Positions 19,511-32,302 of a DNA stretch of 39,644 nucleotides are shown here, in pieces (within the stretch, counting starts at the first letter, position 1; each line of letters opens with the position of its first letter). This stretch comes from a virus. The DNA lies in the IMG/VR virus record IMGVR_UViG_3300024520_007517; one strand, given 5' to 3'. The notes under the pieces were generated by a model that made no database searches, was not told where the DNA came from, and worked only from the letters and a program-made list of their open reading frames with translations. A program made the position numbers and the translations under genes.

Positions 19511-19872
19511 TGATCAACTGCATTCGCGCTCTTCAATCCATCGAAATGAGCAACGGCTCCATGAGCAACGTGCTCGTGCTTCGCAACAAGCTGGGACAGG
19601 AACTAGAGCTCTCTGTGTCCGGGACGGACCTGCAGAGGGTGATGGGACTTCTCCAGGCTGAGGACAACGCCCACAAGTCCACCGAGGAGCCGGGCCTGTC
19701 CGATGAGGAGATCGATCTGATTCGTAGGCACCGTTCCAACGGGCACACCCGCCCCGCCCCCTCTGCGAGCGAGACGGAAGCGATGGCCGACCGTCTGATG
19801 CGGGGTGAGGAGATCGGGGACACCCCCTTTACGGATGAACAGCAGCAACTCTCCACCCCCTTCACCGGCTAA
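19511..19872 (+). CDS. hypothetical acidic protein (120 aa)
   Basis: internal ATG (MINCIRALQS...) of track ORF 19432..19872 with AAGGTGAAA SD. Confidence 0.55.
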
Positions 19873-19875
19873 ACG

Positions 19876-20217
19876 ATGTACTTGGCCGACCCCAAGGCGA
19901 AGATGATCTTCCTAGCCGATACCTTCGGAGACCGTCCCCGTATGGGGCTGACGGGAGGGAAGCTGTATGCCGTGAGTAAGGCTCGCCTCCCAAAACTACG
20001 GGCCGGGGGATATGCGATCCACCACCTGGAGTGGATTCACCCGGATCAGGACCTCAACGCAGAGGGACGATTGTTCTCGGTTGAGGTCACTAGCCTCCCT
20101 GGAGAGCGTCCAGGAGTTCGACGCTTGACTGACGACAACGGTTGGTCCCTCTGGATGACGTCAGGTGGGGGACGAGCGGTCGTGTTCGCGGTCACGCAGG
20201 CGAACAACAATGGCTGA
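19876..20217 (+). CDS. hypothetical protein (113 aa)
   Basis: track ORF; start 3 nt after previous stop. Confidence 0.55.
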   Translation: MYLADPKAKMIFLADTFGDRPRMGLTGGKLYAVSKARLPKLRAGGYAIHHLEWIHPDQDLNAEGRLFSVEVTSLPGERPGVRRLTDDNGWSLWMTSGGGRAVVFAVTQANNNG

Positions 20218-20512
20218 CGCACAAGTGATGGAGAGGCTTCTGATCCTGGAGCACAAGCTCGACGCGCTCCTGGGAGCGCTGAAGATCGGCATACCTCCGA
20301 TGGCCTCCGGCACTCAGTGCCCGGCCTGTGAGAAGGAGATCCGCTATGCGGCGGACTTCGTCTCGAAGATGATCCTCCGTTCCTGCGGCTGCGGGCACGG
20401 TCAACAAGCGCCGATGATTGGATTCGGCGATCTGACACCAGGAGTAAATGATGGCAGGCCAACTCAACACGTATGGCGCGGACCCGAACCAGGCGATCTC
20501 GAAGAGGGCTAG
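20210..20512 (+). CDS. zinc-ribbon protein (100 aa; CPAC...CGCGH)
   Basis: internal ATG (MADAQVMERL...) of track ORF 20165..20512; ATGGCTGA overlap; GC3 drops in last 60 nt where next gene begins. Confidence 0.5.
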   Translation: MADAQVMERLLILEHKLDALLGALKIGIPPMASGTQCPACEKEIRYAADFVSKMILRSCGCGHGQQAPMIGFGDLTPGVNDGRPTQHVWRGPEPGDLEEG

Positions 20513-20831
20513 CCGCTCTCGTGCGAAGACGCCTGCCTTCCTGGGCCTGACGGTCGGAAAGGTCGTGGCCATCAAGCTCCACGATCCCAAGCAGCGCAAG
20601 GACGTGACCCGTCTGACGCTGGTCTTCAACGAGCACACCGACACGCCCCAGGTCCTGCTCTTCCCCGCCAACACGGCCTTCGAGAGCCTGCGTCCCGACC
20701 TCACCGACCAGGTGGTCGAGAAGGTGCGCGGCTTCGACGAGTTCTTGGCCTCCCAGCCTGAGCGTGCCGCCGAGGCCGCCGAAGAGCTGGGCGGCGACGA
20801 GGCCGACGACGGTGAGGTCGCCGAGCTGTGA
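20448..20831 (+). CDS. hypothetical protein with acidic C-terminus (127 aa)
   Basis: track ORF; AGGAG SD just before tandem ATGs. Confidence 0.65.
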   Translation: MMAGQLNTYGADPNQAISKRASRSRAKTPAFLGLTVGKVVAIKLHDPKQRKDVTRLTLVFNEHTDTPQVLLFPANTAFESLRPDLTDQVVEKVRGFDEFLASQPERAAEAAEELGGDEADDGEVAEL

Positions 20832-21208
20832 AAGCCGAGAAGGTCAAACCCCTGGGCAACTGGGTCTTCCTACGCATGGAGCCTCGCCGGGAGAGGATCG
20901 GCCTCATCCACCTCCCCGGCGAGAAGACCGGGGTGGAGAAGGTCGGCTACAACGTCGCCTGCGTCCTCAAAGCGGGCCCGGGGGTCGAGGAGGACAAGAA
21001 GGGTGTGATCTCGAACTTCCAGCCGCAGCGTGAGCTGCAGCCCGGGGTGCGGGTGATCGTCCGGGACTTCCACTCCGACTACCACCCCATCGACGTGGAG
21101 GAGGACGGGAAGCACTTCTTGATCCACTTCAACGACGTCGAGGCCATCCTCGCCGAAGGCGCTTCCCTGGGGGAGTGGTCCGGGATCCAGGATGCCCAGG
21201 CGAGCTGA
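20828..21208 (+). CDS. GroES/Cpn10-like co-chaperonin (126 aa)
   Basis: track ORF; aligns by eye to GroES: KPLGNWVFLR ~ RPLHDRVIVK; LIHLPGEKTGVEK mobile loop; AGPGV ~ VGNG; LQPGVRVIV ~ VKVGDIVIF; C-terminal DVEAIL ~ DILAIV; GTGA overlap with previous gene. Confidence 0.6.
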   Translation: MKAEKVKPLGNWVFLRMEPRRERIGLIHLPGEKTGVEKVGYNVACVLKAGPGVEEDKKGVISNFQPQRELQPGVRVIVRDFHSDYHPIDVEEDGKHFLIHFNDVEAILAEGASLGEWSGIQDAQAS

Positions 21209-21395
21209 CCGACGCGGGGAGCAAGACCCCTACAGGGCGCGGGGGCGCAAGGACCCCATCGACTTCCGTCCCTTCGGATCGGCGCCCTTCGAGGATGAGG
21301 AAGAGGGGGAGGTCTTCATCGAGGAGGCCACACGAGTACTGATCGGGGAGGCCATGGCCTGCCTCATGCCGAAGAAGAGGAAACGCCTGAAATGA
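21192..21395 (+). CDS. small acidic protein with basic C-terminus (67 aa)
   Basis: track ORF; high GC3. Confidence 0.5.
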   Translation: MPRRADRRGEQDPYRARGRKDPIDFRPFGSAPFEDEEEGEVFIEEATRVLIGEAMACLMPKKRKRLK

Positions 21396-22207
21396 GCCTG
21401 CCCATCCGAGTTCACCGAGTCCCTGTCCACGAAGTGGTCCTCTCCATCTACCCCACGGGGAAGTCCCGACTGGAGCTGACTCCGCTGTGCAAGACCTCCG
21501 GAGGCAAGGTCACTCCCTGGCTGGCCGAGGCGCTCTACCAGCTCCACTGCCGAGTCCAGGATGCCGGAGGAGACTTCCGGGTCACGGGGGCCTACCGCAG
21601 CTACGCGATGCAGGCCGCGGCTCGGGAGAAGTACGAGAGGTGGGTCGCGGCCGGCAATCCGAAGCGGAGCGACCCTGCCTGGAACGAGAAGACGATGAAG
21701 GCCGCCTTCGTGGCCAAGCCGGGCTCGTCCCTGCACAACGCGGCGTCGGCTACCGACCTGGACTACATGCGGGCGGCGCCGGCGGCCGTGGCGAAGGACA
21801 AGAAGCTAGACTGGCTCTGGGAGCAGATGGAGGGACTGGGCTTCACAGCCATCATCAGCGAGCCCGACGAGAAGGCCAGCGAGTCCTGGCACTTCAACTG
21901 CTACGGCCCCTGGGCCCATGTGGCCGAGAAGTACGGCCAGACCCACGTTGCCATGTGCATCATCCTGGACATCGGCGAGGGCGACTGGACCTGGAAGCAC
22001 TGGGTGCAGGCGCAGATCCACCGTCTCGGCGCCGACATCGGCAAGGTCGACGGCGTCTGGGGCAAGAAGACCCGCGCCGGCGCTTCGGTGCTGGGCGTGC
22101 TGCTCGGCGATGAAGAGTCGGTGTCGGCCGCCTTCTGCGCCATGTCGGTGAACCCGGGACGCTACCTCTGGGAGATCCAGAGCGACGGCAGCGCGGTGGT
22201 GACCTGA
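21392..22207 (+). CDS. endolysin: peptidase M15 (VanY/L-Ala-D-Glu peptidase-like) plus C-terminal PG_binding_1 domain (271 aa)
   Basis: track ORF; motifs TGAYRSYAMQ, SSLHNAASATDLD, ESWHF match the M15 Zn-ligand pattern; C-terminal GKVDGVWGKKTRAGASVLGVLLG matches peptidoglycan-binding repeat. Confidence 0.65.
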   Translation: MSLPIRVHRVPVHEVVLSIYPTGKSRLELTPLCKTSGGKVTPWLAEALYQLHCRVQDAGGDFRVTGAYRSYAMQAAAREKYERWVAAGNPKRSDPAWNEKTMKAAFVAKPGSSLHNAASATDLDYMRAAPAAVAKDKKLDWLWEQMEGLGFTAIISEPDEKASESWHFNCYGPWAHVAEKYGQTHVAMCIILDIGEGDWTWKHWVQAQIHRLGADIGKVDGVWGKKTRAGASVLGVLLGDEESVSAAFCAMSVNPGRYLWEIQSDGSAVVT

Positions 22208-22593
22208 TGAGAACCATTCTGTGGACAGGTGCCCGGCTGCAGCCGGTTGGGCACCGAGAGAAGCGGCCCCGGGTCCGCCGACGGCGCCCGCAACCCTTCA
22301 AGAAGGTGTTGCCACTCATCCGAGAGAAGATGCTCGAGCTACGAGAGGCAGGGTACGACTTCATACTCACGGCCGAAGGCGTGGGCAAGGATCTGGGCCT
22401 GGACAGCAGCTCGGTGAAGCGCGCCTTCGGGCAGCTCCGCATCGAGGGAATCATGGGTCCTCCTCAGAACCACGCACCGGGCAACACCTGGCGCGGAGGG
22501 GGCTATGACGAGTACTCCGGGTGGCACCCCACGACATGGCGCCTGCGACTCAAGACTGAGGAGCTGGCGGAGGAAGACAAGGAGTCCGCATGA
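22207..22593 (+). CDS. hypothetical protein, possible winged-helix (128 aa)
   Basis: track ORF; TGATG overlap. Confidence 0.5.
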   Translation: MRTILWTGARLQPVGHREKRPRVRRRRPQPFKKVLPLIREKMLELREAGYDFILTAEGVGKDLGLDSSSVKRAFGQLRIEGIMGPPQNHAPGNTWRGGGYDEYSGWHPTTWRLRLKTEELAEEDKESA

Positions 22594-22844
22594 GCAACTT
22601 GATCAGTTTGAAGAATGCCGTCAGCGGCGCCCTCACCCGGCTCGGCAACCGCCGGCTGCGCGGAGAGGTCCTGCGTCTCCGGCCCGAGTGGTACGAGATC
22701 GCGGAAGAGGCCATCATCGAAGAGCAGGGGACCGCCCCCATCCTGGCCTTCCTGGGGCTGAACCTGGAGCAGGGTGACGAGAACATCGTCGTCACCAGCG
22801 GCATGTTCGGGTCCCAGTCGGAGTTCCTGGAGTTCTCGGAATGA
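22590..22844 (+). CDS. hypothetical protein (84 aa)
   Basis: track ORF; ATGA overlap. Confidence 0.5.
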   Translation: MSNLISLKNAVSGALTRLGNRRLRGEVLRLRPEWYEIAEEAIIEEQGTAPILAFLGLNLEQGDENIVVTSGMFGSQSEFLEFSE

Positions 22845-23131
22845 CCGACAAGCACTTCCACTTCCACATCCACGAGGATGACGTGAAGGAGCCGGCTGCG
22901 GGTGCCCCAGCTGCACCTCTCCAAGCGACCGTCACCAACATCCCCATGCACGGAGGCGTGGTGACGGTGGGACTGCCTCTGGCCGTCAGTACCGAGACAC
23001 AGCTGATGCGGCTGACCCATCAGCTGCTCTACGCATTCGCCTCCCTTCAAGACCCCCGGGTCAACGCGGCCCTCAAGGCCGTGGGCTGCACCGTCAAAGA
23101 CAACAACGGCAAAGACCTGATCCCCGTATAG
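22841..23131 (+). CDS. hypothetical protein (96 aa)
   Basis: track ORF; ATGA overlap. Confidence 0.5.
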   Translation: MTDKHFHFHIHEDDVKEPAAGAPAAPLQATVTNIPMHGGVVTVGLPLAVSTETQLMRLTHQLLYAFASLQDPRVNAALKAVGCTVKDNNGKDLIPV

Positions 23132-23140
23132 GAGCCAGAG

Positions 23141-23704
23141 ATGACCGCACTACCCAAGCTCGAAGGCAACTACGAGCCCCTCAAGATCTACCTTGAAGAG
23201 TCGACGACGTGGACGGCCCCGGAGCGCAACTCCGTCCTGCGGGCGATCAAGCAGTGGAACTGGGCCGACCCGGAGAGGGCACAGTATCTGCCGCCTCTGA
23301 TGGAGATCGCCGAGTTCCAGAGGCAGAGCGACGTGACGGTCAACTGGGTGGAGGAGGTCGACGCCCTCCTCCTGGTCGTAGGACACCCCGTGATCCTCAA
23401 GGACAGCGCCTTCGGGTGCTGCGTCACCGATACCGAGACAGGGCAGGTGGACATCTACCTTGACCGCAACATGCACAGGCAGCTTGGGCCGGGATGGCGC
23501 GTGCCGGTGGCTCTGCACGAGCTGGGGCATGCCGGAGGGCTGCGCCACTCCGACGCCACGGTGCCCTCCGGCATCATGCAGCCGGGACTGGTGAACCTCG
23601 ACGAGGGTCACGGCTTCCGCATGGTCACTCAGCTCGAGCGAGAACGCCTACGAGAACTCCGAGTCGACAGCGTCGTCGGCGTAGACAGCCTGGAAGGCAA
23701 CTGA
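23141..23704 (+). CDS. metzincin-type zinc metalloprotease (187 aa)
   Basis: track ORF; AGGAGCC SD; exact HExxHxxGxxH motif (HELGHAGGLRH). Confidence 0.55.
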   Translation: MTALPKLEGNYEPLKIYLEESTTWTAPERNSVLRAIKQWNWADPERAQYLPPLMEIAEFQRQSDVTVNWVEEVDALLLVVGHPVILKDSAFGCCVTDTETGQVDIYLDRNMHRQLGPGWRVPVALHELGHAGGLRHSDATVPSGIMQPGLVNLDEGHGFRMVTQLERERLRELRVDSVVGVDSLEGN

Positions 23705-23705
23705 C

Positions 23706-24185
23706 ATGAACTTCTTCTCCTCCCCTTTCGAGGCCCTCCTCATCGCCGTCAAGCCCCGCAAGCAGGGGCCCGATGACGACCGCGTCCTCGTCGTCGACCT
23801 GGTCATGGACATTCTGGTACCCGACATCTCGATGGCCTACCAGCTCGATGACAGTGCCGGCGACTTGCTCTTCGGGCCGACGGCCGGGCTGCTGAAGCAG
23901 GCTGCCGTGCTGACCGGCCGGCAGCAGTGCGGCACCTTCGACCTATCGGTCGGCTTCGCCCCCATCCTCAACGAGCAGGATGAGAACGTGAGCCTCTTCT
24001 TCGACTCGACCAAGGTCAAGATCACCCACCTGAAGCCGGACGCGGAGGAGACCTCCATGGTTCGCTCAGTGATGACGGTGTCCCCCGACGATCACCGCGC
24101 CGTGCAGCTGATGATGGAGCGCATCGAAGACGCCATCTGGTGCGTTGGCACCGAGTCCATCATGGAGAAGGAAGAGGCGGCCTGA
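23706..24185 (+). CDS. hypothetical protein (159 aa)
   Basis: track ORF; start 2 nt after previous stop. Confidence 0.55.
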   Translation: MNFFSSPFEALLIAVKPRKQGPDDDRVLVVDLVMDILVPDISMAYQLDDSAGDLLFGPTAGLLKQAAVLTGRQQCGTFDLSVGFAPILNEQDENVSLFFDSTKVKITHLKPDAEETSMVRSVMTVSPDDHRAVQLMMERIEDAIWCVGTESIMEKEEAA

Positions 24186-24544
24186 TGCACTGCTTCTTCC
24201 TCAACCAGAAGGCAGCCAACGAGGCTGCTGCGACGAAGCTCGTCGCCGAAGGCCATGACGAGGGCGAGGCGTTGGAGGCCGTGCGGGAACTGGCCCTGCC
24301 TCCCATCCTCGAGGTGCAGTGGATGTGGTTCCCGAACTTCATCGCCACCGACACGCCGATGCAGAATCGCCTCTACAAGGCCTGGTCCTCTCGCTGGGCA
24401 GGCCAGGAGGTGGTCGATGGTCAGCTTGAGTGCGCCGACGAGATGCACGAGTGGATCTTGGACTGGGTGACGGTCCAATACCCCTTCGTCGAGGGTCTGA
24501 AGGGCTACCTGAAGGGCATCGAACAAGTCCGCCAGGCTGCGTAG
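24185..24544 (+). CDS. hypothetical protein (119 aa)
   Basis: internal ATG (MHCFFLNQKA...) of track ORF 24140..24544; TGATG overlap. Confidence 0.5.
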   Translation: MHCFFLNQKAANEAAATKLVAEGHDEGEALEAVRELALPPILEVQWMWFPNFIATDTPMQNRLYKAWSSRWAGQEVVDGQLECADEMHEWILDWVTVQYPFVEGLKGYLKGIEQVRQAA

Positions 24545-24612
24545 TGGCGCTAGCCCCTCCCATCCGGCGGCCCCGGACTTTCTCGGGGCCGAAGGTACGC
24601 TCCCGGAAGCTC

Positions 24613-26823
24613 GTGTCCGTCTTGATGGCGGCTTACCAGGCGCAGGAGTGGGTGGTGGCCGCGGCAGCGTCAGTTCTCGACCAGGCACTTCCCGCAGGAT
24701 GGGACTTGGAGCTTCTGGTGTGCGTTGACGGCTGCACCGCCACGCTGAAGGCGGTGCAGGGTCTTCACGACCCAAGGGTGGGAGTGGCGGCACTGGACAA
24801 GAACTACGGCACCTACATCGCCACCAACACCATCCTGGGCATGTCCCGGGGCGAGCTGGTGACCTGCATGGGGGCCGACGACATCATGCTGCCGACCCGG
24901 CTCCTCAAGCTGGTCGGTGCGATGGAGAGGCACCCAGAGGTGGGCCTGGCCGGAGCGTGGTACACCCGAACAGACGAAGATCTGAACTTCCTAGAGCATC
25001 GGAACACCTGCGGCGACGGCACCTGGGTACATCGCAGAAGCATCCTGGTGGGGAAGCTCGGGGGCTTCATGCCGTGGACGTGCGGAGCCGACTCAGAGGT
25101 GGTGGTGCGGACCTCCTACCTGGGGGCCAAGAGGCATCAAGTGCGAGAGCATCTGTACCTGCACCGCCAACACCCGAAGCAGCTCACCGCGGACCCGAAA
25201 ACCGCCGCGGGGTCCAAAGTACGGGAGGGCTACGTCGAGATCATCGAACGCGCCAGGACCCGCTATAAGGGAGGGGCGAGGCCCCAGCGCATCGTTCCCG
25301 TAAAGGGGAAGGTGGCGTCCTTGGGAGGCTTCTTGCGGAAGACCAAGGAGGCGCCTCCGAAGGCCGAGCTGAAAGAGGTGTCGATGGCCTCTATCCCTGC
25401 CCGAAGAAAGACCCTGAAGGAAGCGGTGGAAAGCCTCCTCCCCCAAGTGGATCGGGTCAACGTCTACCTCAACGAGTACCGGGACGTGCCGAGCTTCCTG
25501 AATCACCCCAAGATCCGGGTCGCCCGCAGCCAGAAGCACGGGAACCGGGGAGACGCGGGGAAGTTCTTTTGGTCGGGGAGGGGCCGGGGGTACCACCTGA
25601 CCGCCGACGACGACATTATCTACCCAAAGGGGTACGTCACCCGCCTGGTAAATGCCATTGACCACTACGGCCGCAGGGCCGTCTTGAGCTTCCATGGCAC
25701 TGTGCTGAGACCGGGAGCGAAGGTCTACTACAAGGACCGGGTGACCACTTTCCGCTGCTTGGATGGGGTAGACGGCAACCACCCGGTGCATGTCGCGGGC
25801 ACGGGAGTCATGGGGTACCACTCTGACGCCTTGAAGGTGACCCCCGAGGACTTCAAGCACCCCAACATGGCGGATGTGTGGATGGGGCTTCTGTGCCAGA
25901 AGGCGCGGGTGCCCTGCGTCGTCCTCCAGCACAAGGGCGGGTGGCTCAAAAGCCATTGGATCCCGGACACCATCTTTCGGAAGTCCGCGGACCACCTGGA
26001 TGGGTCCTTCATGGACTCATCCGTTCAACAGAACCGAGCCATCCAGTCGGTCTCATGGGATCTGCTTCCCGCCCCCGCCTTCCGGATAGGGGTGGTGATG
26101 CCCATTTGGCGGCGCGAGCCAGTGGCTCGCGCCGCGCTCAGGCACCTACACCGGCTTCGAGTGGCCCTTCAGAAGGAGGGGGTCAGCCTTCGGGTGGTGA
26201 TCGTGGGCTCCGAGAAAGAGGTCTCCGCCTCCTTGGTGAGGGAGGCGGGGCGAGGGGAGTTCCGCTATGTGGAGTGGCCGAACTCCCCGCTGGGGAGCAA
26301 GTTCCAGGCCGGAGTGGATGCCGTCCGAAAGTGGGGAGTGGATGCAGCGGTCATCAACGGGTCTGACGACTTTCTCTCCCTCTCCGTCTTCAAGCACTAC
26401 GTCGCAAGGCACTACGACGGGGCGCCGTTGATGGGCGTGAAGGATGCGACCCTACTGGATACGGCCTCCGGCAAAGCCGCGTACTGGGCGGGGTACACGA
26501 GGAATCGAGCCAGGATCGGAGAGCCGGCCGGCACAGGCCGATTCTATTCGGCGCGGACGCTGGACTCTCTGGGGTGGGAGCTGTACCCCACGCACCTATC
26601 GATGGGCCTCGACGCCGCGTGCATGAAGCGGTTGGGGGCGAGAAAGTTCGAGCTGGTGGGGCAACCCACCGCCCACCTCGTGGCCCTCAAGACTGCGGAC
26701 GCGCTCAACGCCTTCCCCGGAGGAGGAGCCGTGGTTTCCTCTGAGGGGGCGCTCACCAACCTGTTCCCCGGGACTCAGGAAGATATTCGGCGATTGTTGG
26801 GGGGCCCTCGTGCAGGTGCATGA
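24613..26823 (+). CDS. multidomain glycosyltransferase (~736 aa): N-terminal GT2 (GT-A) domain plus two further GT-A-like domains
   Basis: track ORF 24430..26823, start placed at GTG 24613 (alternatives TTG 24622, ATG 24625) after stop of previous gene; KLVSVLMAAYQ...LLVCVDGC...CMGADDIM is the GT2 signature with DxD; second DDD motif (LTADDDIIY) and third Rossmann-like region (IGVVMPIW...VVIVGSEKE...INGSDDF). Confidence 0.65.
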   Translation: MSVLMAAYQAQEWVVAAAASVLDQALPAGWDLELLVCVDGCTATLKAVQGLHDPRVGVAALDKNYGTYIATNTILGMSRGELVTCMGADDIMLPTRLLKLVGAMERHPEVGLAGAWYTRTDEDLNFLEHRNTCGDGTWVHRRSILVGKLGGFMPWTCGADSEVVVRTSYLGAKRHQVREHLYLHRQHPKQLTADPKTAAGSKVREGYVEIIERARTRYKGGARPQRIVPVKGKVASLGGFLRKTKEAPPKAELKEVSMASIPARRKTLKEAVESLLPQVDRVNVYLNEYRDVPSFLNHPKIRVARSQKHGNRGDAGKFFWSGRGRGYHLTADDDIIYPKGYVTRLVNAIDHYGRRAVLSFHGTVLRPGAKVYYKDRVTTFRCLDGVDGNHPVHVAGTGVMGYHSDALKVTPEDFKHPNMADVWMGLLCQKARVPCVVLQHKGGWLKSHWIPDTIFRKSADHLDGSFMDSSVQQNRAIQSVSWDLLPAPAFRIGVVMPIWRREPVARAALRHLHRLRVALQKEGVSLRVVIVGSEKEVSASLVREAGRGEFRYVEWPNSPLGSKFQAGVDAVRKWGVDAAVINGSDDFLSLSVFKHYVARHYDGAPLMGVKDATLLDTASGKAAYWAGYTRNRARIGEPAGTGRFYSARTLDSLGWELYPTHLSMGLDAACMKRLGARKFELVGQPTAHLVALKTADALNAFPGGGAVVSSEGALTNLFPGTQEDIRRLLGGPRAGA

Positions 26824-27718
26824 GCTGCTACGCGTCCTGCACGAGCGGGGCCTTCTACTCCAGGTGCTGGGGACCACGGAGGGGGCGGCCCTACGCCCCC
26901 ACTCCTTGACCTCCGCCGGTCCAGGGTCGGTCTGCTTCTCCCAGTCCCCCACTCCGGAGATCTTTGAGCAGGCCGCGCAAAGGGGTACGGCTCTGCTCTT
27001 ATCGGCCCCCTTCGAGTTCCCGTGGAGGGAGGACATGCCGATCGCGGTCTGCGATCGGGTTCGGTTGGCCTTTGCCGTCGTGACGGGATTGTTTGAGCCG
27101 CCCCCTGTACCGGGCGTACACCCGACCGCGGTGGTGGATGGCTACGTTGACCCCTCGTCGACGGTGGGGGCTATGTGCTACGTCGGGCCGGGATGCTCGG
27201 TGGGCGCGGGGTCGGTGCTTCATCCGGGGGTGGTCCTGGTGCGGAACGTCCGGGTCGGAGAGCGCTGTATCGTGCACTCAGGGGCCGTCCTGGGGGCAGA
27301 CGGTTTCGGCTATGCCCGCGATCAGGACGGTCGACTGGAGAAGATCCGGCACTTTGGGGGAGTCGTTCTAGAGGACCACGTCGACATTGGCCCGAACTCC
27401 AACGTGAACGCGGGCACCCTCGACCCGACTCGGCTCTGCTTCGGAGCGAAAGTAGACGCCCTCTGCCACATCGGGCACAACGCCCAGATAGGCCGGCACG
27501 CTGCCCTCGCTGCCGGGACCATTCTGGGGAGGTCGGCCCTCGGTGAGGCGTCCTGGACCGGGCTGAACAGCACCATCCTGCCGGGGAATGACGTGGGGGA
27601 CCGGGGGACGGTGGCTGCTCACGCTCTGGTGACCCGGGAGGTTCCTCCAGATACTACGGCGGTGGGAGTTCCCGCCCGGGCCATTTCTCGAGTACGCAAG
27701 CCCGGGGACATGTGGTGA
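26810..27718 (+). CDS. LpxD-like left-handed beta-helix (hexapeptide-repeat) sugar N-acyltransferase (302 aa)
   Basis: track ORF; GTG start overlapping previous gene; LpxD-type N-terminal region, then hexapeptide repeats VHPTAVVDGYVDPSSTVGAMCYVGPGCSVGAGSVLHPGVVLVRNVRVGERCIVHSGAVLG. Confidence 0.65.
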   Translation: MQVHELLRVLHERGLLLQVLGTTEGAALRPHSLTSAGPGSVCFSQSPTPEIFEQAAQRGTALLLSAPFEFPWREDMPIAVCDRVRLAFAVVTGLFEPPPVPGVHPTAVVDGYVDPSSTVGAMCYVGPGCSVGAGSVLHPGVVLVRNVRVGERCIVHSGAVLGADGFGYARDQDGRLEKIRHFGGVVLEDHVDIGPNSNVNAGTLDPTRLCFGAKVDALCHIGHNAQIGRHAALAAGTILGRSALGEASWTGLNSTILPGNDVGDRGTVAAHALVTREVPPDTTAVGVPARAISRVRKPGDMW

Positions 27719-28341
27719 TCCCCCTCCGTGGAACAGTTCTGGCCCTCGGTCCACACCCCGACGATGTGGAGCTGGGGTGTGGAGGCCTGCTGGCGCGTCT
27801 CAAGGGCTGCAAGAAGCACATCCGCGTCTTCTCGGACTGCGAGAAGTCCATCCCAGAGGGGTTCACCACCGAGGACCTCATCGCGGAGTGCCATGAGGCT
27901 GCCGCACTGCTGGGGGCATCCTGCGAGGTCCTCGACTTCCCCGTACGGGACTTCCCGGCGCAGAGGCAGGAGATCCTGGAGGCGCTCGTAGGACTGAACA
28001 AGGAGCTGCGCCCAGACGTGGTGCTGGTCCCCTCGTCTACCGACATACACCAGGACCACCGGGTGATCTTCGAGGAAGCCGTTCGGGCCTTCCGAACATG
28101 CACCGTTCTTGGGTACGAGGTCTCTTGGAGCAATAAGGCCCACCGGCCGTCCTTGTTCGTTGCTCTAGGGCGGGAGGACGTAGAAGTGAAACTTTCTGCC
28201 CTCAGGTGCTACCAAACTCAGGCGATAGGCAGGAGCTACTTCAAGGACGACGAGATGTTTGTGGCCCCTCTGAGGGTCAGAGGATTACAGATCAGGCAGC
28301 TTTACGCGGAGGCGTTTGAGGTCTTGCTGGGGGTCATCTGA
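27712..28341 (+). CDS. PIG-L/LmbE family N-acetylglucosaminyl deacetylase (209 aa)
   Basis: track ORF; signature LALGPHPDDVELGCGG (AHPDDE-type zinc-binding motif), HQDH. Confidence 0.65.
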   Translation: MVIPLRGTVLALGPHPDDVELGCGGLLARLKGCKKHIRVFSDCEKSIPEGFTTEDLIAECHEAAALLGASCEVLDFPVRDFPAQRQEILEALVGLNKELRPDVVLVPSSTDIHQDHRVIFEEAVRAFRTCTVLGYEVSWSNKAHRPSLFVALGREDVEVKLSALRCYQTQAIGRSYFKDDEMFVAPLRVRGLQIRQLYAEAFEVLLGVI

Positions 28342-28920
28342 ATGTACGACGAGGCACTTTATTGGGATTCGCGGTATCTCGCGGGAGGGAACAGCGGCTC
28401 CGGCTCTCGAGGGAAGGAGGGGGACTGGAAGGCCCGCTTCGTGATCGAGGAGGCGAAGAGAGCCAAGCCGCAGACAGTCTTGGACCTTGGCAGCGGGGAC
28501 GGCGTAGTAGGCGCTCAGATCATGCGCTCTCTGCCGAGCTCCCTCTACCTCGGGGTGGACATCTCTTCCGCCGCCGTAGAGTCCTCCTGCCGGCAGAGGA
28601 CCCCCAACATGCAGTTCCTCGTCGAGGATCTTGTATCTTCCCGGCACACGGCGGACCTGGTCCTTTGCCTCGATGTCCTGTTCCACCTGCCCACAGAGCA
28701 GCGGCAGCGAGAGGCTCTTGAGGCGATAGGTAGATCCTTCGAGAAGTCGGCGGTTGTCGCCGCGTGGAACAGCGGAGTGCTGTCCCTGGGGGAGCTCGCG
28801 CCACACTGCTTCTTCTTCCCCTTCGTGCCCCCACCGGGCACCGTGATCTACAAGCAGGAGACGCTGCCCATGAACCCCGTGAAGACTATGTACGTCCTGC
28901 ACAGGTCGGAGGTGGGATGA
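28342..28920 (+). CDS. class I SAM-dependent methyltransferase (192 aa)
   Basis: track ORF; motif I VLDLGSGDG, post-I acidic residue, DLVLCLDVLFHL. Confidence 0.6.
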   Translation: MYDEALYWDSRYLAGGNSGSGSRGKEGDWKARFVIEEAKRAKPQTVLDLGSGDGVVGAQIMRSLPSSLYLGVDISSAAVESSCRQRTPNMQFLVEDLVSSRHTADLVLCLDVLFHLPTEQRQREALEAIGRSFEKSAVVAAWNSGVLSLGELAPHCFFFPFVPPPGTVIYKQETLPMNPVKTMYVLHRSEVG

Positions 28921-29417
28921 CGTACTGGAACAAGAGGAAGCAGCATGTCTACTACCGCGAGGTCTTAGCGGTAGCTCGGAGGACCGCCCCCAAAGCGACC
29001 AGCCTCCTTGATGTGGGGACAGGCCCTTGCGAGTACCCAGCGTGGTTCGATTGGATCCCGCGGAAGGTGCTGGTGGACAAGGGCAACACCCCTCCTGTGC
29101 CCGGGGCCGAGTGCATTCGGGCCGACTTCATGACCTACCAGACGGCCGAGCGCTTTGACCTCGTCACCTGCCTGCAGGTCCTGGAGCATCTGCAAGATCC
29201 AGCAGCCATGGCGCGGCGCTTGCTCGCCCACGGCAAGAAGGTGATCGTGTCGGTGCCGTACATGTGGCCGGAGAACTTCTGCAAGTACCATGTGCAGGAC
29301 CCAGTCAGCACCAAGAAGCTGCTCTCCTGGTTCCCGGTCAAGCCCATCGAGACCCTGAAGGTGACCGAGCCCGGGAACATCTCCAGGATGATCGCCGTGT
29401 TCCCTGGGAGAGCATGA
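28917..29417 (+). CDS. class I SAM-dependent methyltransferase (166 aa)
   Basis: internal ATG (MTYWNKRKQH...) of track ORF 28764..29417; ATGA overlap; LLDVGTGPCEY and FDLVTCLQVLEHLQDP. Confidence 0.55.
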   Translation: MTYWNKRKQHVYYREVLAVARRTAPKATSLLDVGTGPCEYPAWFDWIPRKVLVDKGNTPPVPGAECIRADFMTYQTAERFDLVTCLQVLEHLQDPAAMARRLLAHGKKVIVSVPYMWPENFCKYHVQDPVSTKKLLSWFPVKPIETLKVTEPGNISRMIAVFPGRA

Positions 29418-30145
29418 GCCTCCGCCGCAGCCATCTCACCTTCTCTGTCGGCCTGTCCGTCAAGGGCCGGGAGTCCCAGCGCCTGGATAGGTGTCTGGAG
29501 AGCCTGGAGCAGCAGACGCTGCGCCCTGTGCAGATCGTCGTGGTGGAGATGGCCGAGAAGGGCCTCTTCAAGCACCGAGCCACCTGCGTGCGCTTCGGGG
29601 TGCGTCACCTGCAGGTGGAGGATGACGAGGGCCTCTTCCCGCTGGCCAGGCTGGCCAACATCGCAGGCCGTCAGCTCATGGGCTCGGCCACCCACTTCGT
29701 CAAGACGGACATGGACGCCGTCTTCCACCCCGAGCTGCTGCGGCAGCTGGCGCTTCGCGTGGATGAGGACCCTCGAGGCCTGGTGAGCGTGCGCCCCCGC
29801 CGGCTGCTCAAGAAGTACTCGTATCCTGGAGGCCCCGAGCGATGGTGCCGCGACGCACAGCTGGTGAAGGGGGACGAGAAGATGTGGGGCCTGTGCATGG
29901 CTCACGACTTCGACTCCTTCGGTGAGCTCCGCGGATTCGACGAGGCCTTCGTGGGCTGGGGAGGGGAGGACCGCAACTACGTCTACCGGGCGGAGCAAGC
30001 AGGGCGGACAGCGAGGATGCTGGACATGGGCCCTCTGCTGGCCCACCAGTGGCACTCCGTCGAGAAGGGCTCCCGGGTGAACGCCTGCAAGAACAAGGAG
30101 TGGCGGAAGAGGGCCCAGAGGAATGGGACGGGGTGGGGCCGGTGA
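29414..30145 (+). CDS. family 2 glycosyltransferase (243 aa)
   Basis: internal ATG (MSLRRSHLTFSVGLSV...) of track ORF 29264..30145; ATGA overlap; GT2 N-terminal beta-strand, DMDAVF (DxD), GFDEAFVGWGGEDRNYVYR (GT2 C-terminal GEDxD motif). Confidence 0.65.
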   Translation: MSLRRSHLTFSVGLSVKGRESQRLDRCLESLEQQTLRPVQIVVVEMAEKGLFKHRATCVRFGVRHLQVEDDEGLFPLARLANIAGRQLMGSATHFVKTDMDAVFHPELLRQLALRVDEDPRGLVSVRPRRLLKKYSYPGGPERWCRDAQLVKGDEKMWGLCMAHDFDSFGELRGFDEAFVGWGGEDRNYVYRAEQAGRTARMLDMGPLLAHQWHSVEKGSRVNACKNKEWRKRAQRNGTGWGR

Positions 30146-30963
30146 ACCTGCTCCGCAAAGGGCGGGTCGACGACGAGGCCGCCGTGCCCAGCTACAAGGA
30201 GCCGAAGGACACTAGGCCGTTCCAGGTGAGCGCCGTCATACCCATCAAGGACCGTCCCTCCAAGCACCTGGCCGCTTCCGTCCGCTTCCTGCTTGCACAG
30301 TCCCTCCCGGTGCACGAGATCATCGTGGTGGATCAGGCCAGCAAGCCGGAGCTGCGGAGAGAGTACGCATCGATCTTGAAGGCACCCAAGACGAAGCACC
30401 TGATCCGAGACACGCCCGACCAGTGGAATAAGCCTATGGCGGCCAACGCCGGCATCCGGGCCACCAGCCCAGAGAGCACCCACATACTCAACCTCGACTG
30501 CGACATGCTCTTCGGCCCCAATGCCCTGGACACTCTTAGGTCGCTAGCCGACAAGTACGGCGGGGAGGTTCTGGTGTACGGTCACCGGCATGATCTGCTC
30601 GACGCCAGCACGCTGCTGTCTCGGCGCCCCAGGTGGAGGACTCTGCTAAGAAACCTGCGCCTCACAGATCGGGTCGCCAACCCCTGGCACTTTGTACCGA
30701 GAGATTGGATCCACCGGGTGCGTGGGTACGACGAGAGGATGTGGGGCCGCGGCGCCATGGATAACGACATGACCTCTCGGGCTGAGAGGGATCCATCCAT
30801 CGCGGTAGCTCAAGTCAATGAGAAACAGCCGTTGGCCATCCACTACAACCACTCCAGGCCGCCTTGGCCAGAGACCCATAAGAGGCCGGAGACCGCCCTG
30901 AATTGCCACCTGAGGAACACAGATCTCTCTATCGTGAGGAACGACGAGAACTGGGGAGCCTGA
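30142..30963 (+). CDS. family 2 glycosyltransferase (273 aa)
   Basis: track ORF 30049..30963; GTG start overlapping previous stop (GTGA); VSAVIPIKDRPS...IIVVDQAS...LNLDCDMLF. Confidence 0.55.
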   Translation: MNLLRKGRVDDEAAVPSYKEPKDTRPFQVSAVIPIKDRPSKHLAASVRFLLAQSLPVHEIIVVDQASKPELRREYASILKAPKTKHLIRDTPDQWNKPMAANAGIRATSPESTHILNLDCDMLFGPNALDTLRSLADKYGGEVLVYGHRHDLLDASTLLSRRPRWRTLLRNLRLTDRVANPWHFVPRDWIHRVRGYDERMWGRGAMDNDMTSRAERDPSIAVAQVNEKQPLAIHYNHSRPPWPETHKRPETALNCHLRNTDLSIVRNDENWGA

Positions 30964-31109
30964 CATGGGATGCAACTGCCGCAAGCAAGCCAAACCGCAG
31001 AGAGCTACCCGGCCCGTGCGTACTCGTGTAGTGTACGCACAACGTGGAGTACAAGTCCGCAAGCCACGCGAGAGCAGCGAGCAGGTGGACAAGAAGGTGA
31101 GGAGGATCG

Positions 31110-31298
31110 GTGAGCAGTAACGACGCCCGAATGCAGATCCGCCTGCCCCAGGATCTGAAGAAGTTCGCCCTCGATGAGGCGGCGGAGGACCAGAAGGCGA
31201 AGGGCAATGCGTCCTTGCTGATCCGCCACATGCTCGAAGAGCGACGACGCAAGAAGCTCGCTGCAGCCGTTGAAGGGATCGAGATCCATGAGTTCTGA
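31110..31298 (+). CDS. ribbon-helix-helix (Arc/MetJ/CopG-like) DNA-binding protein (62 aa)
   Basis: track ORF; GTG start with GAGGAGGA SD; ARMQIRLPQDLKKFALDEAAEDQKAKGNASLLIRHMLEE fits RHH beta-alpha-alpha. Confidence 0.55.
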   Translation: MSSNDARMQIRLPQDLKKFALDEAAEDQKAKGNASLLIRHMLEERRRKKLAAAVEGIEIHEF

Positions 31299-31980
31299 GA
31301 AGAAGGTCGAGCGCTCCCACCGCTTGGTACGGACCGACCCTGTGGGAATCTCCTCCCAGCTCCGAGAGGAGCTGAAGATGGGCGGGGTCTCCGGGGTCGC
31401 CATCGACATCGAGGGCCGGACCATCCTCGTGGAGCGGCTGGCCTCCGTCCAGCAGCAGCTCGACCTACACAACGAGGCGCAGGAGGCCCAGACCATCGTA
31501 GATCCGGTGGAGTACGCCCTGGAGAACCTCTCCGAGATGAACGTCCAGGGCTTCACTCTGCGGGAGGCGATGTTCGAGGTCGCCGATGCAGCCATCGGCG
31601 GCGGAGGAGCCATCGTCTCCTGGGTCTGTGGGGACCCCCAGCGAGTCGCGAAGATGCTCGACCGGCAGATGCCGCGTCTGCAGTCCCACCCGCTTTTCAT
31701 CCTGCAGGCTGCCCTGCGCCATTCTCCAAGGCTCAGCGAGACGGATGTGGTCGCCTGCATCGGCCCCTCCCTGGATGACCCCGCCGAAGTGGTCGCCGGG
31801 ATTCTCTTCCGTCTTGAGGACATCACCGCTCCCCGTGGAGAGAGCCATGAACACCATCCTGTCAGTGCTAATCGAGAGCTCCCTGGTCCCGAGGCAGGCC
31901 GTGGATCTGCTACTCAGGCACGGCCTTCTGGACCAGGCAGAAGCCGACCGCTATGGGCGGGACCCGCTCCCGGCCGATGA
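31288..31980 (+). CDS. hypothetical protein (about 190-230 aa; C-terminal extent uncertain)
   Basis: internal ATG (MSSEKKVERSH...) of track ORF 31270..31980, overlapping RHH stop; GC3 collapses after ~31850 where next gene starts. Confidence 0.45.
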   Translation: MSSEKKVERSHRLVRTDPVGISSQLREELKMGGVSGVAIDIEGRTILVERLASVQQQLDLHNEAQEAQTIVDPVEYALENLSEMNVQGFTLREAMFEVADAAIGGGGAIVSWVCGDPQRVAKMLDRQMPRLQSHPLFILQAALRHSPRLSETDVVACIGPSLDDPAEVVAGILFRLEDITAPRGESHEHHPVSANRELPGPEAGRGSATQARPSGPGRSRPLWAGPAPGR

Positions 31981-32302
31981 AGAGGGACTTCAAGAGCTTG
32001 CGGAGAAGGTCGAAGCGGCCCTGGCCAACGTCCCAGATGCGGAGTCTCTTGACGACATCGAGCGAGGGGCGGACGTTCTGGTCCATGGGCAGTTCGGCAG
32101 CCACGTCCGGCTGGCAGGGAAGGTCTGCAAGCAGGCTCTCTACATCTGCCTGCCACCCGACGTGGAGGAGGACAACCTGTTCGTTGGCCTCCCCACGGAG
32201 TTCGACATCTCCGCGTGGGGTGGGAGCACTACGGGAGTGAAGTACCGGGATCCAGAAGTAGTCCAGCATCGCGGCAAGCGGTGGTTGAGGGTGGAGCTGT
32301 AG
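31847..32302 (+). CDS. hypothetical acidic protein (151 aa)
   Basis: internal ATG (MNTILSVLIESS...) of track ORF 31586..32302 with GGAGAGAG SD; high GC3. Confidence 0.6.
   Translation: MNTILSVLIESSLVPRQAVDLLLRHGLLDQAEADRYGRDPLPADEEGLQELAEKVEAALANVPDAESLDDIERGADVLVHGQFGSHVRLAGKVCKQALYICLPPDVEEDNLFVGLPTEFDISAWGGSTTGVKYRDPEVVQHRGKRWLRVEL

Follow-up and report, generated by a model that had tools for sequence, protein, structure and literature searches.

What would a virus do with seven consecutive genes for building and modifying a sugar chain, and on which acceptor would the product be placed? The question is raised by positions 24613-30963 of a 39.6-kb metagenome contig, the whole of which forms the window (39,644 nucleotides). 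The reading we favour, to which we give a probability of roughly 0.45, is that the locus is a variable phage island whose soluble enzymes assemble and edit a glycan, with virion proteins as the likeliest target. Host-envelope glycans are the main rival as target. The genes, with the two that flank them, are the following.

24140..24544, + strand: conserved left flank, 134 aa, function unassigned (homologues in L021, L017)
24613..26823, + strand: three-domain glycosyltransferase, 736 aa (PmHS2-collinear over domains 1-2)
24613..25300, + strand: domain 1, GT2-type GT-A, DxD motif (GADD) (PF00535, 70.8 bits)
25357..26080, + strand: domain 2, KfiA/GT45-like, DDD motif (TADDDIIYP) (phmmer against PDB)
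26092..26823, + strand: domain 3, predicted divergent GT-A glycosyltransferase, invariant GSDD motif (AF2, Foldseek, homologues)
26810..27718, + strand: LpxD-like left-handed beta-helix N-acyltransferase, 302 aa (NCBIfam, PDB, alignment)
27715..28341, + strand: PIG-L/LmbE-family de-N-acetylase, 208-209 aa (PF02585, 66.3 bits)
28342..28920, + strand: class I SAM-dependent methyltransferase 1, 192 aa, motif I VLDLGSGDG (Pfam)
28917..29417, + strand: class I SAM-dependent methyltransferase 2, 166 aa from ATG 28917 (Methyltransf_23, 33.1 bits)
29414..30145, + strand: accessory GT-A glycosyltransferase, 243 aa, Glyco_transf_7C signature, DMD motif (PF02709, 29.3 bits)
30142..30963, + strand: accessory GT2 glycosyltransferase, 273 aa from GTG 30142, DCD motif (PF00535, 40.9 bits)
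31270..31980, + strand: conserved right flank, 236 aa, function unassigned (homologues in L021, L017)

The seven ORFs of the island are co-directional and showed coding-type GC3 values of 0.74-0.81. Starts and stops overlap or abut at their junctions: starts at 26810/26816 against a stop at 26823 between the large glycosyltransferase and the LpxD-like gene (8-14 nt overlap), GTGA at 27715 ahead of the PIG-L gene, an abutting TGA-ATG at 28341/28342, ATGA at 28917 between the methyltransferases (with GGAGG upstream) and at 29414, and GTGA at 30142. This pattern fits translational coupling and bears out the contiguous, coupled cluster of the preliminary description. A Pfam scan placed all seven proteins above at least one curated family cut-off, and their catalytic motifs were intact: every glycosyltransferase domain has its DxD, the acyltransferase its His-Asn pair, and the deacetylase both HPDD and HxDH. 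A cluster that builds and modifies a glycan, as had been proposed, was upheld, on a phage-like element. Since none of the seven proteins contains a 19-residue window reaching Kyte-Doolittle 1.6, we read them as soluble, cytoplasmic enzymes. Flippase, polymerase, ABC exporter and phosphoglycosyl transferase families were all missing from the Pfam results for the window ORFs, and the island was read as self-contained.

The largest protein had been described as a three-domain GT2, but it combines a GT2 domain, a KfiA/GT45-like domain and a divergent GT-A domain. Alternative starts are the JGI call at 24544 (759 aa) and an ATG at 24625; P0001, encoded on a contig of 39,644 bp, is 100% identical, and in L021, a relative, two ORFs of 495 aa and 241 aa cover this sequence. 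Domain 1 (residues 2-172) aligned with PmHS2 residues 38-212, a weak match (E 0.005), as well as with SpsA and K4 chondroitin synthase. Domain 2 matched no Pfam model in the Pfam scan. In phmmer searches against the PDB, residues 249-459 matched residues 297-516 of PmHS2 (8vh7, E 1e-22), and the domain also matched KfiA (5z8b, E 4e-12 to 8e-13). We take the CAZy family of this PmHS2 half to be GT45, PmHS2/KfiA then being GT2 plus GT45, and domain 2 is a predicted alpha-N-acetylglucosaminyltransferase on these similarities. Domain 3 (residues ~494-736) is, according to its AF2 model (pLDDT 94.5), a divergent GT-A fold; Foldseek matched it to AvpGT, WrtF, a Leptospira GT2 and K4CP in the PDB (E 6e-8 to 4e-6), and to uncultured Caudovirales GT-A proteins in BFVD (TM 0.74-0.81). 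It has 1660 remote homologues, and a weak PF00535 match was seen in 8 of 40 homologues. No sequence similarity to domain 2 or domain 3 was found in GenBank phages. At 25-35% identity sugar specificities are not readable, so the substrates given here for the glycosyltransferases are predictions. Elsewhere the GT45-like domain is fused with FkbM or class I methyltransferases (P0003, P0004, P0006, P0007, P0016 and L030) and, in P0052, with a hexapeptide acyltransferase. The repeated methyltransferase fusions suggest that methylation is tied to the same glycan.

The naming of the next gene as an LpxD-like N-acyltransferase held in part. The protein matched Hexapep (65.9 bits, Pfam) and LpxD structures in the PDB (E 2e-30, with the N-terminal domain covered at residues 32-134); it retains the UDP/uridine-binding N-terminal domain and, in the alignment, the catalytic His223-Asn224 and Phe43. 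However, it scored below the cut-offs of the LpxD models (181.6 bits against 207 for NCBIfam LpxD, 170.5 against 242.5 for TIGR01853), and the alignment showed it to be short of one coil of 18 residues and of the helical domain that docks ACP at the C-terminus. The PIG-L/LmbE deacetylase (alternative start 27712) proved to be as first described, with both the HPDD and HxDH metal-binding motifs; its PDB matches were TT1542 and BshB, and its score against the BshB1 model (69.9 bits) was below the 182.5 cut-off. The two genes are adjacent, and usually overlapping, in the window, L021, L027/L028, L030 and a 64-kb JGI contig, that is, on at least five independent phage-like contigs, and in three the pair lies directly 3' of a GT2/GT45-like multidomain glycosyltransferase. 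Such recurrent adjacency argues for a real functional pair of deacetylase and N-acyltransferase, although the two might act on different sugars. The LpxC/LpxD analogy drawn earlier stands as far as the pair goes, but not for long-chain acyl-ACP chemistry, the ACP-docking domain being absent.

Both methyltransferases announced in the preliminary description were found, each above a Pfam cut-off. Methyltransferase 1 passed those of Methyltransf_12/25/11/23 (38.2 bits for Methyltransf_12) and is 76% identical to its L021 orthologue; methyltransferase 2 is 70% identical to its own. The Glyco_transf_7C enzyme is 44% identical to the product of an L021 gene upstream of the core and 38% to one of L017, and the last GT2 protein, whose longest ORF begins at 30049, is about 25% identical to GTb of L021. 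The genes of these two small enzymes occupy other places in L021 and have diverged further; we regard them as accessory and the remaining five of the seven as the conserved core.

This core (24625-29408, 4.8 kb) shares 73.6% nucleotide identity with the syntenic 97.9-kb contig L021, while the flanks barely align; its proteins share 66-80% identity, and the figure for backbone genes is 35-49%. Conservation of such a block indicated that the cluster is not a chance arrangement. Homologues of the left-flank gene lie directly upstream of glycosyltransferase genes in L021 (34%) and L017 (41%), and those of the right-flank gene directly downstream of the island (41% and 33%, respectively). Between the two flank genes there is one gene in L017, seven in the window and nine in L021. 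Judged by these relatives, the locus is a variable island in a conserved backbone. The L021 version carries an extra inositol-dehydrogenase-like GFO/IDH/MocA oxidoreductase gene. A gene for a peptidoglycan hydrolase precedes the locus by a few kb in three of its versions.

The contig was read as part of an uncultured large, probably jumbo, phage. Its sole lineage marker, a vault-protein-like gene, indicates uncultured jumbo or huge phages: homologues of this gene occur on 20 IMG/VR contigs of 34-405 kb, the majority longer than 110 kb, and in phage records of 462-735 kb. This ran against the actinophage framing proposed at first, and comparisons at the DNA and protein levels revealed no resemblance to the glycosylation genes of actinophages. 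The window also carries DUF551, M15 peptidase and DNA ligase genes. The assignment to a phage relies on the IMG/VR class of the relatives and on one marker gene, no hallmark structural gene having been detected in the window.

In the reading we favour, the soluble enzymes would work in the cytoplasm of the infected cell, building a short glycan or polymer and editing it. Up to five glycosyl transfers could come from the large three-domain protein together with the two small GT-A enzymes, and one of these transfers, that of the KfiA/GT45-like domain, would by homology add an alpha-linked GlcNAc-type residue. The PIG-L enzyme would strip an N-acetyl group, and the LpxD-like enzyme would acylate the exposed amine anew with another group, the donor probably being acyl-CoA and not long-chain acyl-ACP, given the missing docking domain. 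Acyl editing could precede transfer, with the UDP-sugar as substrate, or follow it, with the glycan as substrate. The UDP-sugar route fits the retained UDP-binding domain and the tolerance of KfiA/PmHS2 for N-acyl UDP-GlcNAc analogues; KfiA is an alpha-1,4-GlcNAc transferase, and GlcNTFA (N-trifluoroacetyl-glucosamine) can replace GlcNAc during chain elongation (PMC12834895). The two methyltransferases would then methylate the edited product. By analogy with virion glycosylation in mycobacteriophages and in chloroviruses/giant viruses, the likeliest acceptors would be phage structural proteins: virus-encoded multidomain glycosyltransferases and GT-GT-methyltransferase proteins glycosylate capsids (PMC7826918), and mycobacteriophage virion glycans are known, as cited in PMC12619734. 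Against this reading, neither the window nor the retrieved flanks yielded an identifiable structural gene, for capsid, tail or otherwise, whose product could serve as acceptor.

The island might instead use lipid-linked or capsule intermediates of the host at the cytoplasmic membrane face and produce or change a polysaccharide of the cell surface, exported by host machinery; a heparosan-like capsule with GlcNAc, an O-antigen or lipid-A-proximal sugars would be examples. We consider this rather unlikely, though a serious contender. If true, receptors would be masked and other phages excluded, or the cell surface changed. Heparosan synthase and LpxD work at the membrane inner face, on lipid-linked or nucleotide substrates, for envelope polymers, and on this ground host-surface remodelling fits equally well. 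The nearest characterised homologues are indeed capsule enzymes (PmHS2/KfiA) and a lipid A enzyme (LpxD), and peripheral glycosyltransferases without transmembrane segments are normal in O-antigen and capsule assembly. The upstream peptidoglycan hydrolase gene points the same way, as do the large cyanophages whose many cell-wall/LPS genes were interpreted by the authors as modifying the host surface (PMC12801897). On the other hand, the window yielded no initiating phosphoglycosyl transferase, flippase, polymerase, ligase, ABC transporter or UDP-glucose dehydrogenase, the LpxD-like protein lacks both the ACP-docking domain and an lpxD-fabZ-lpxA context, and the GT-GT-methyltransferase fusions of the homologues resemble capsid-glycosylating giant-virus enzymes.

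Three other explanations appeared far less probable. Phage GT-A enzymes attach Hex, HexNAc and di-HexNAc to 5hmC, and ParB-like partitioning proteins are named among their neighbours (bioRxiv 10.1101/2023.12.21.572611); in phages Bolt007, V-YDF132 and DLP3, at most a few genes separate PIG-L from a ParB-like gene. The island could accordingly place HexNAc-type sugars on a modified base of phage DNA such as 5hmC or 5hmU, to be deacetylated, re-acylated or methylated against host nucleases. Yet such pathways are usually clustered (same source), and cytosine C5-methyltransferase, TET/5mYOX dioxygenase, thymidylate-synthase-like hydroxymethylase and ParB were absent from all ORFs of the 39.6-kb window and from the called genes of L021 and L027. 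Moreover, five glycosyltransferase domains and an N-acyl swap far exceed any known DNA glycan, which made this explanation improbable. It is quite improbable that the contig stems from a cellular chromosome, plasmid or other giant element and that the cluster is an ordinary locus for cell wall or exopolysaccharide. In favour of this, the window ORFs matched no terminase, capsid, portal or tail family, and P0060, a more distant LpxD-like homologue (43% identity), is encoded in a polysaccharide locus of cellular appearance, together with Wzx-like, WecG, DegT and UDP-glucose dehydrogenase genes. However, a pattern scan across 185,579 species genomes gave the LpxD-like protein a best match of 37% identity, and the four retrieved cellular loci, three of which have a second, LpxA-like hexapeptide gene downstream, all lacked both PIG-L and glycosyltransferase homologues, which spoke against a host chromosomal cell-wall origin. 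The relatives L017 and L001 are IMG/VR viral contigs, other carriers of the module hold GIY-YIG/NUMOD3, thymidylate kinase, Amidase_2 and an intein-containing helicase, about 85% of window ORFs have no family, and no tRNA or housekeeping gene was found in the window. Finally, a soluble glycoside, for instance a thiol- or aminoglycoside-like GlcN conjugate as in mycothiol or bacillithiol, was suggested by the best named matches of the deacetylase (BshB and MshB-type enzymes) and by the L021 oxidoreductase. This is very improbable: to our knowledge, thiol and aminoglycoside pathways all use a GT4 (GT-B) enzyme for GlcNAc transfer, and the island has none, nor a ligase or cysteine-adding enzyme, while five GT-A domains are excessive for a monoglycoside. 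A GT4-like enzyme had been placed at 15772, but Pfam (even at E<=1), NCBIfam, PHROGs, PDB sequences and local phmmer gave it no support.

How does the island compare with known systems? The order of chemical steps would parallel that of the rhizobial Nod factor, in which the GT2 enzyme NodC builds a GlcNAc chain, NodB deacetylates it, NodA re-acylates it and NodS methylates it. NodB is a CE4 enzyme and NodA is not a hexapeptide protein, so this is analogy alone, with no homology implied. Lipid A synthesis follows the same logic of glucosamine de-N-acetylation and then N-acylation (LpxC/LpxD). Here the acyltransferase is a true LpxD homologue with uridine-binding N-domain, beta-helix and catalytic His-Asn, although it falls below both family cut-offs, has one helix coil fewer and is without the C-terminal ACP-recognition helices; the deacetylase is of the PIG-L family, not LpxC, and neither lpxA nor fabZ is a neighbour. 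With Pasteurella multocida PmHS2/PmHS1 and E. coli K5 KfiA, the 736-aa protein shares the order of a GT2 half (weak match) and a KfiA-like half (clear homology, DDD motif retained), but it has a third GT-A domain appended, a viral setting, and no UDP-glucose dehydrogenase or Kps export genes near the island; any polymerase activity or PmHS2-like sugar specificity would be putative.

MshB, BshB and PIG-L proteins of cultured phages belong to the same family as the island deacetylase, with the same metal-binding motifs and 26-34% identity. In Arthrobacter phage Bolt007 (genes 65-67), Stenotrophomonas phage DLP3 (genes 96-102) and Vibrio phage V-YDF132, the PIG-L genes adjoin glycosyltransferase, oxidoreductase or methyltransferase genes, as in the island; however, the partner glycosyltransferases and oxidoreductase show no BLAST similarity to those of the island, and these loci contain no LpxD-like or GT45-like gene. 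The elaborateness of the cluster, once thought unusual, lost weight given DLP3, with its PIG-L, WcaG, WecE, methyltransferase and glycosyltransferase set (PMC7326821), and a cultured cyanomyovirus reported with 13 glycosyltransferases and 22 cell-wall genes (PMC12801897). What is new among phages is the combination of sugar-chain building, an acyl swap on glucosamine and methylation. Mycobacteriophage loci of the Che8/Corndog type (Freeman et al. 2023, as cited in PMC12619734) hold glycosyltransferases, sometimes with O-methyltransferases, outside the structural module and, according to the same citation, decorate capsid and tail-tube C-termini, the kind of role proposed for the island. They have far fewer enzymes and no deacetylase/acyltransferase pair, and the island contig is not that of an actinophage. 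Chlorovirus PBCV-1 (A064R, A111/114R) and giant-virus clusters differ in being from eukaryotic viruses in which the capsid target is proven, whereas that of the phage island is a proposal. Nevertheless, their enzymes are soluble, virus-encoded and independent of the host secretory machinery, methylated sugars are involved, and their GT-GT-methyltransferase architecture recurs in the island homologues. The likeness drawn is one of architecture: one viral polypeptide carries three glycan-building domains, as here.

Seven consecutive plus-strand ORFs of the window, from 24613 to 30963, each reached a Pfam gathering cut-off, in the order GT2, Hexapep, PIG-L, two class I methyltransferases, Glyco_transf_7C and GT2:

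24613-26823 (+): glycosyltransferase of 736 aa with three domains (GT2), hereafter the big GT
directly downstream (+): LpxD-like acyltransferase (Hexapep)
next in order (+): PIG-L deacetylase
28342-28920 (+): class I methyltransferase MT1
28917-29417 (+): class I methyltransferase MT2
29414-30145 (+): first small GT (Glyco_transf_7C)
30142-30963 (+): second small GT (GT2)

The preliminary description, made from the sequence alone, had assigned all seven ORFs to glycan-related families and called them translationally coupled. Profile searches left none of them below a gathering cut-off, and the coupling stands since successive genes overlap or abut, the junctions being an overlap of 8-14 nt, then GTGA, TGA-ATG, ATGA, ATGA and GTGA. 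None of the seven proteins carries a transmembrane-grade hydrophobic segment. The window is a JGI metagenome contig in its entirety, since the protein record P0001, 100% identical to the big GT, has a longest contig of 39,644 bp. GC content was ~63% along the whole window, without compositional break at the cluster, and GC3 delineated three strand blocks (minus, 1-15421; plus, 15772-34480; minus, 34658-39391). Scanning for promoters and terminators gave chance-level results, and operon boundaries were not called. Collectively, the island encodes five GT-type catalytic domains, a de-N-acetylase, an N-acyltransferase and two methyltransferases, in proteins that are soluble, genetically coupled and co-inherited.

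Co-inheritance was apparent from related contigs. L021, a 97.9-kb ENA contig, was syntenic with the window. Positions 24625-29408, spanning the big GT through MT2, aligned to it as one 4.8-kb block of 73.6% nucleotide identity, flanked by scattered short matches only. Proteins in this block were 66-80% identical, and those of the backbone 35-49%. L021 encodes the third GT domain in an ORF of its own (241 aa) and has a GFO/IDH/MocA oxidoreductase after the core; its two small GTs are found upstream of the core, on the other side from those of the window. In L017, a 96.8-kb IMG/VR contig, the same flanking genes enclose a single GT. Between two conserved genes (24140-24544 and 31270-31980 in the window), L017 thus has 1 gene (6255-8340), the window 7 and L021 9 (8076-16454), which makes the locus a variable island within a conserved backbone. 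L021 also carries two adjoining response-regulator receiver-domain genes (5463-6265), with no kinase near.

The big GT had been described as a three-domain GT2. Three domains were found, and the first is indeed GT2 (PF00535, 70.8 bits for a cut-off of 23.3) with a DxD-type GADD motif; the ORF ending at 30963 scored 40.9 bits with the same profile and has DCD. Against PDB sequences, the big GT gave two collinear matching pieces. Residues 2-172 matched the GT2 half of PmHS2, the heparosan synthase of Pasteurella, weakly (E 0.005), SpsA and K4 chondroitin synthase being about equally good. Residues 249-459 matched PmHS2 residues 297-516 (E 1e-22) and E. coli K5 KfiA residues 9-159 (E 4e-12), and they keep the acidic DDD motif (TADDDIIYP aligned with TCDDDIIYP). 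In heparosan synthesis, KfiA is the alpha-1,4-N-acetylglucosaminyltransferase (PMC12834895). Being homologous to KfiA and to PmHS1/2 in their C-terminal half, domain 2 is KfiA/GT45-like and a predicted alpha-GlcNAc transferase. Residues ~494-736 had no match in Pfam or, by phmmer, among PDB sequences; a word-indexed homologue search returned a single close homologue, and an exhaustive search returned 1660 remote ones. An AlphaFold model built on a 2-sequence alignment (pLDDT 39.6) was discarded in favor of one built on a 40-sequence alignment (pLDDT 94.5). The latter adopts a GT-A glycosyltransferase fold, with structural matches in the PDB to AvpGT, WrtF, a Leptospira GT2 and K4CP, and in BFVD to GT-A proteins of uncultured Caudovirales (TM 0.74-0.81). 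Since domain 2 matches PmHS2/KfiA and domain 3 models as GT-A, the protein is not made of three GT2 domains; its architecture is GT2, GT45-like and divergent GT-A. Neither of the small GTs had a phmmer match against PDB sequences.

Assignment of the deacetylase to the PIG-L/LmbE family was upheld, with PF02585 at 66.3 bits (cut-off 28.2) and both zinc-binding motifs, HPDD and HxDH, kept as PHPDDVE and DIHQDH in alignments to TT1542 and BshB. The protein scored 69.9 bits against the BshB1 equivalog TIGR04001, short of the cut-off of 182.5, and its exact look-up returned no record. Likewise, both class I SAM methyltransferases were recovered above cut-off with their glycine-rich motif I, MT1 through Methyltransf_12 (38.2 bits) and Methyltransf_25 (37.3 bits) with LDLGSGDG, and MT2 through Methyltransf_23 (33.1 bits) with LDVGTG. 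As for the GT4-like enzyme proposed at 15772, no profile or sequence search gave a match of any kind to ORF 15772-16560, with no GT-B/Glycos_transf_1 match in Pfam (E<=1), NCBIfam, PHROGs, PDB sequences or local phmmer. Bacillithiol or mycothiol synthesis was rejected, as there was no GT4 and no ligase.

The LpxD-like protein matched PDB LpxD sequences with E down to 2e-30, N-terminal domain included. In the region of the uridine-binding N-terminal domain of LpxD, its residues 32-134 align to residues 52-155 of P. aeruginosa LpxD (E 3.5e-7), with Phe43 conserved and the second aromatic position shifted; PF04613 gave no match. The left-handed beta-helix is present, and H223-N224, with the catalytic His equivalent to E. 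coli His239, is invariant in phage-clade and chromosomal LpxD sequences. Judged from these alignments, it is a genuine homologue of LpxD. Yet, it fell below the curated cut-offs (TIGR01853, 170.5 versus 242.5 bits; NF002060, 181.6 versus 207 bits), and in the alignment the phage clade stops about 15-50 residues short of chromosomal LpxDs, without the helical tail and without one 18-residue coil. The C-terminal tail of LpxD docks acyl-ACP, and the PDB matches included the LpxD-ACP complexes 4IHF/G/H. Thus, the proposed LpxD-like N-acyltransferase holds as to homology and the catalytic His-Asn, and departs from LpxD in its scores and in lacking the ACP-docking tail. Its neighbors are GT and PIG-L genes, unlike the lpxD-fabZ-lpxA context of LpxD. 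With sub-cut-off scores, no C-terminal tail and no such context, a canonical role in lipid A synthesis was rejected. The clade has members of ~302 aa that are 54-100% identical, followed by a sharp fall to ordinary LpxDs at about 35-45%. An IMG/VR scan with the protein found no relative.

In every other carrier with readable context, the LpxD-like gene is directly followed by a PIG-L gene. The pair comes after a 1208-aa GT2/GT45-like/FkbM protein in the contigs L027/L028, where neighbors include GIY-YIG, thymidylate kinase and Amidase_2 genes, and after a 984-aa protein of the same composition in L030, which has two PIG-L genes. The latter are tandem paralogues (3878-5097 of this 5.3-kb contig), 26% and 66% identical to that of the window. 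In a JGI contig of 64 kb, which also encodes an intein-containing helicase, the pair sits within a 14-gene sugar island (RmlC/RmlD-like, GT1/GT4 and FkbM genes). Among homologues of the GT45-like domain, fusion partners were FkbM or class I methyltransferases and, in one case, a hexapeptide acyltransferase. The protein with the latter fusion, P0052 (629 aa), is found on contigs of up to 137 kb and joins GT2, hexapeptide acyltransferase and GT45-like domains in one chain, and its domain composition makes it a Rosetta-stone link between acylation and a putative alpha-GlcNAc-transferase domain. The preliminary description had allowed for homologous clusters being host chromosomal loci. In an exact-peptide-pattern scan of 185,579 species genomes, which has limited sensitivity, the best LpxD-like match was 37% identical. 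An LpxA-like second hexapeptide gene lay downstream in three of the four cellular loci retrieved and PIG-L or GT homologues in none, which counts against a host chromosomal locus. LpxD relatives at greater distance, whether of cellular genomes or of metagenome contigs, mostly had a downstream LpxA-like hexapeptide gene as well, and no PIG-L.

Outside the island, recognizable ORFs of the window encode a major-vault-protein-like protein (885 aa), an ATP-dependent DNA ligase, a VanY/M15 peptidase, a DUF551 protein and HTH regulators; most others had no family. Features are as follows:

7429-8898 (-): 489-aa ORF with a sub-threshold DUF2325 match and a weak RNase E-type PHROG match
21392-22207 (+): VanY/M15 peptidase, endolysin-like
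23141-23704 (+): 187-aa ORF whose HExxH metalloprotease signature is weak (Matrixin, E 2e-4, sub-cut-off)
35138-36694 (-): ATP-dependent DNA ligase-like protein, 518 aa, with a weak Pfam match and PHROG 114, 46% identical to its L021 orthologue
36734-39391 (-): vault-like protein, with Pfam MVP_shoulder (85 bits) and one Vault_3 repeat

The two plus-strand ORFs lie 1-3 kb upstream of the island, and a cell-wall hydrolase is also found a few kb upstream of the glycan genes in L021 and L027. The vault-like protein looks like a full-length-sized homologue of the eukaryotic major vault protein. It shared 36% identity, across 93% of its length, with proteins of uncultured phages of 462-735 kb, and 20 IMG/VR contigs (34-405 kb) had homologues at 35-41%; flanks of the gene in relatives were not conserved with the window. 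The contig had no tRNAs and no detected hallmark virion or packaging gene. The vault-like marker and the IMG/VR relatives point to a fragment of an uncultured large phage, an indirect conclusion in the absence of structural hallmark genes. An actinophage origin, as implied by the preliminary description, was rejected. Against 50,697 GenBank phage records, megablast and blastn with the cluster and tblastn with the DNA ligase gave no match, and tblastn with the big GT gave four weak N-terminal GT2 matches only, no actinophage among them. Comparison with mycobacteriophage virion-glycosylation loci accordingly showed no homology to actinophage GTs, and genes for capsid and tail proteins, the tail-tube and capsid C-termini being what such loci glycosylate, are not on the contig.

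The island is thus a real, conserved, phage-borne island for glycan assembly and editing, from which we infer product and target. Glycosylation of mycobacteriophages shields virions from antibodies, and phage glycosylation also remodels host surfaces. We favor virion proteins as the target, with a probability of roughly 0.45, because lipid-carrier and export genes are absent and because the GT-GT-methyltransferase fusions in homologues recall the glycosylation of chlorovirus capsids (PMC7826918) and of mycobacteriophage virions, the latter as far as cited in PMC12619734. Host-envelope remodelling ranked second and seems less probable. DNA hypermodification would have a precedent in HexNAc on 5hmC (bioRxiv 10.1101/2023.12.21.572611), but it appears very improbable, as a C5-methyltransferase, a 5mYOX dioxygenase and a thymidylate-synthase-like hydroxymethylase were found in none of the window, L021 and L027; ParB, 5mYOX and ThyS genes sought in its support were not found either. 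In Arthrobacter phage Bolt007 (genes 62-67), Vibrio phage V-YDF132 and Stenotrophomonas phage DLP3 (genes 96-104), a PIG-L gene lies beside GT, oxidoreductase or methyltransferase genes, a few genes from ParB-like/Noc-like genes, which hints at a possible link to DNA modification in these phages. Unlike these loci, the window has no ParB.

To our knowledge, experimental work on phages has dealt with small GT sets only. The island had been deemed more elaborate than is usual in actinophages; since multi-gene sugar clusters are documented in cultured phages, elaborateness alone is not new. Cyanomyovirus S-SCSM2R has 13 GTs and 22 cell-wall genes (PMC12801897), DLP3 has PIG-L, WcaG, WecE, a methyltransferase and a GT (PMC7326821), and Arthrobacter phages have an oxidoreductase, GT and deacetylase cluster. 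Homology of the Arthrobacter phage oxidoreductase and GT with island genes was rejected after comparison. The GenBank phage records searched held neither a GT45-like domain nor a PIG-L/truncated-LpxD pair, and a full-text literature search on GT45/KfiA in phages yielded no paper mentioning GT45 or KfiA. Within these records and this search, we could not find described for phages the putative KfiA/GT45-like domain or the conserved pair of PIG-L with a truncated, apparently ACP-independent LpxD homologue. By its composition, the pair implies an N-acyl swap on glucosamine.

One transfer would install an alpha-GlcNAc-type residue, whose acetyl group would be exchanged for another acyl group. Given the pairing of a deacetylase with an acyltransferase, the new group would not be acetyl, or else the two enzymes would act on different amines. 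The absence of the ACP-docking domain suggests CoA as the acyl donor. Several characterized PIG-L enzymes act on alpha-GlcNAc glycosides, and editing may take place after transfer. Alternatively, it may occur at the UDP-sugar level, which would fit with the apparently retained LpxD N-domain and with GlcNTFA units being able to replace GlcNAc in chain elongation (PMC12834895). If true, the island would offer a new enzyme pair for N-acyl-glucosamine glycans, of relevance to chemoenzymatic heparosan/heparin work, which needs N-modified GlcN units, and a marker for hypervariable surface-glycan islands of jumbo phages. Demonstration of target and product would be needed for more than a moderate scientific gain.

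A bolder proposal, which we consider unlikely, is a viral glycosaminoglycan-type pathway, wherein a heparosan-synthase-like GT2/GT45 polymerase would make a GlcNAc polymer, the PIG-L/LpxD-like pair would de-N-acetylate and re-N-acylate it, with methylation, and the resulting N-acyl-glucosamine polymer would coat virions or infected cells. A PmHS-type locus comprises UDP-glucose dehydrogenase and Kps-type ABC export, and Pfam scans of the window ORFs found neither family. Bifunctional heparosan synthases have a glucuronyltransferase GT2 half and then a GT45 half in one chain; the first two domains of the big GT are collinear with PmHS2 in order, with a GT2 half that matches it only at E 0.005, and SpsA and chondroitin synthase about equally well.
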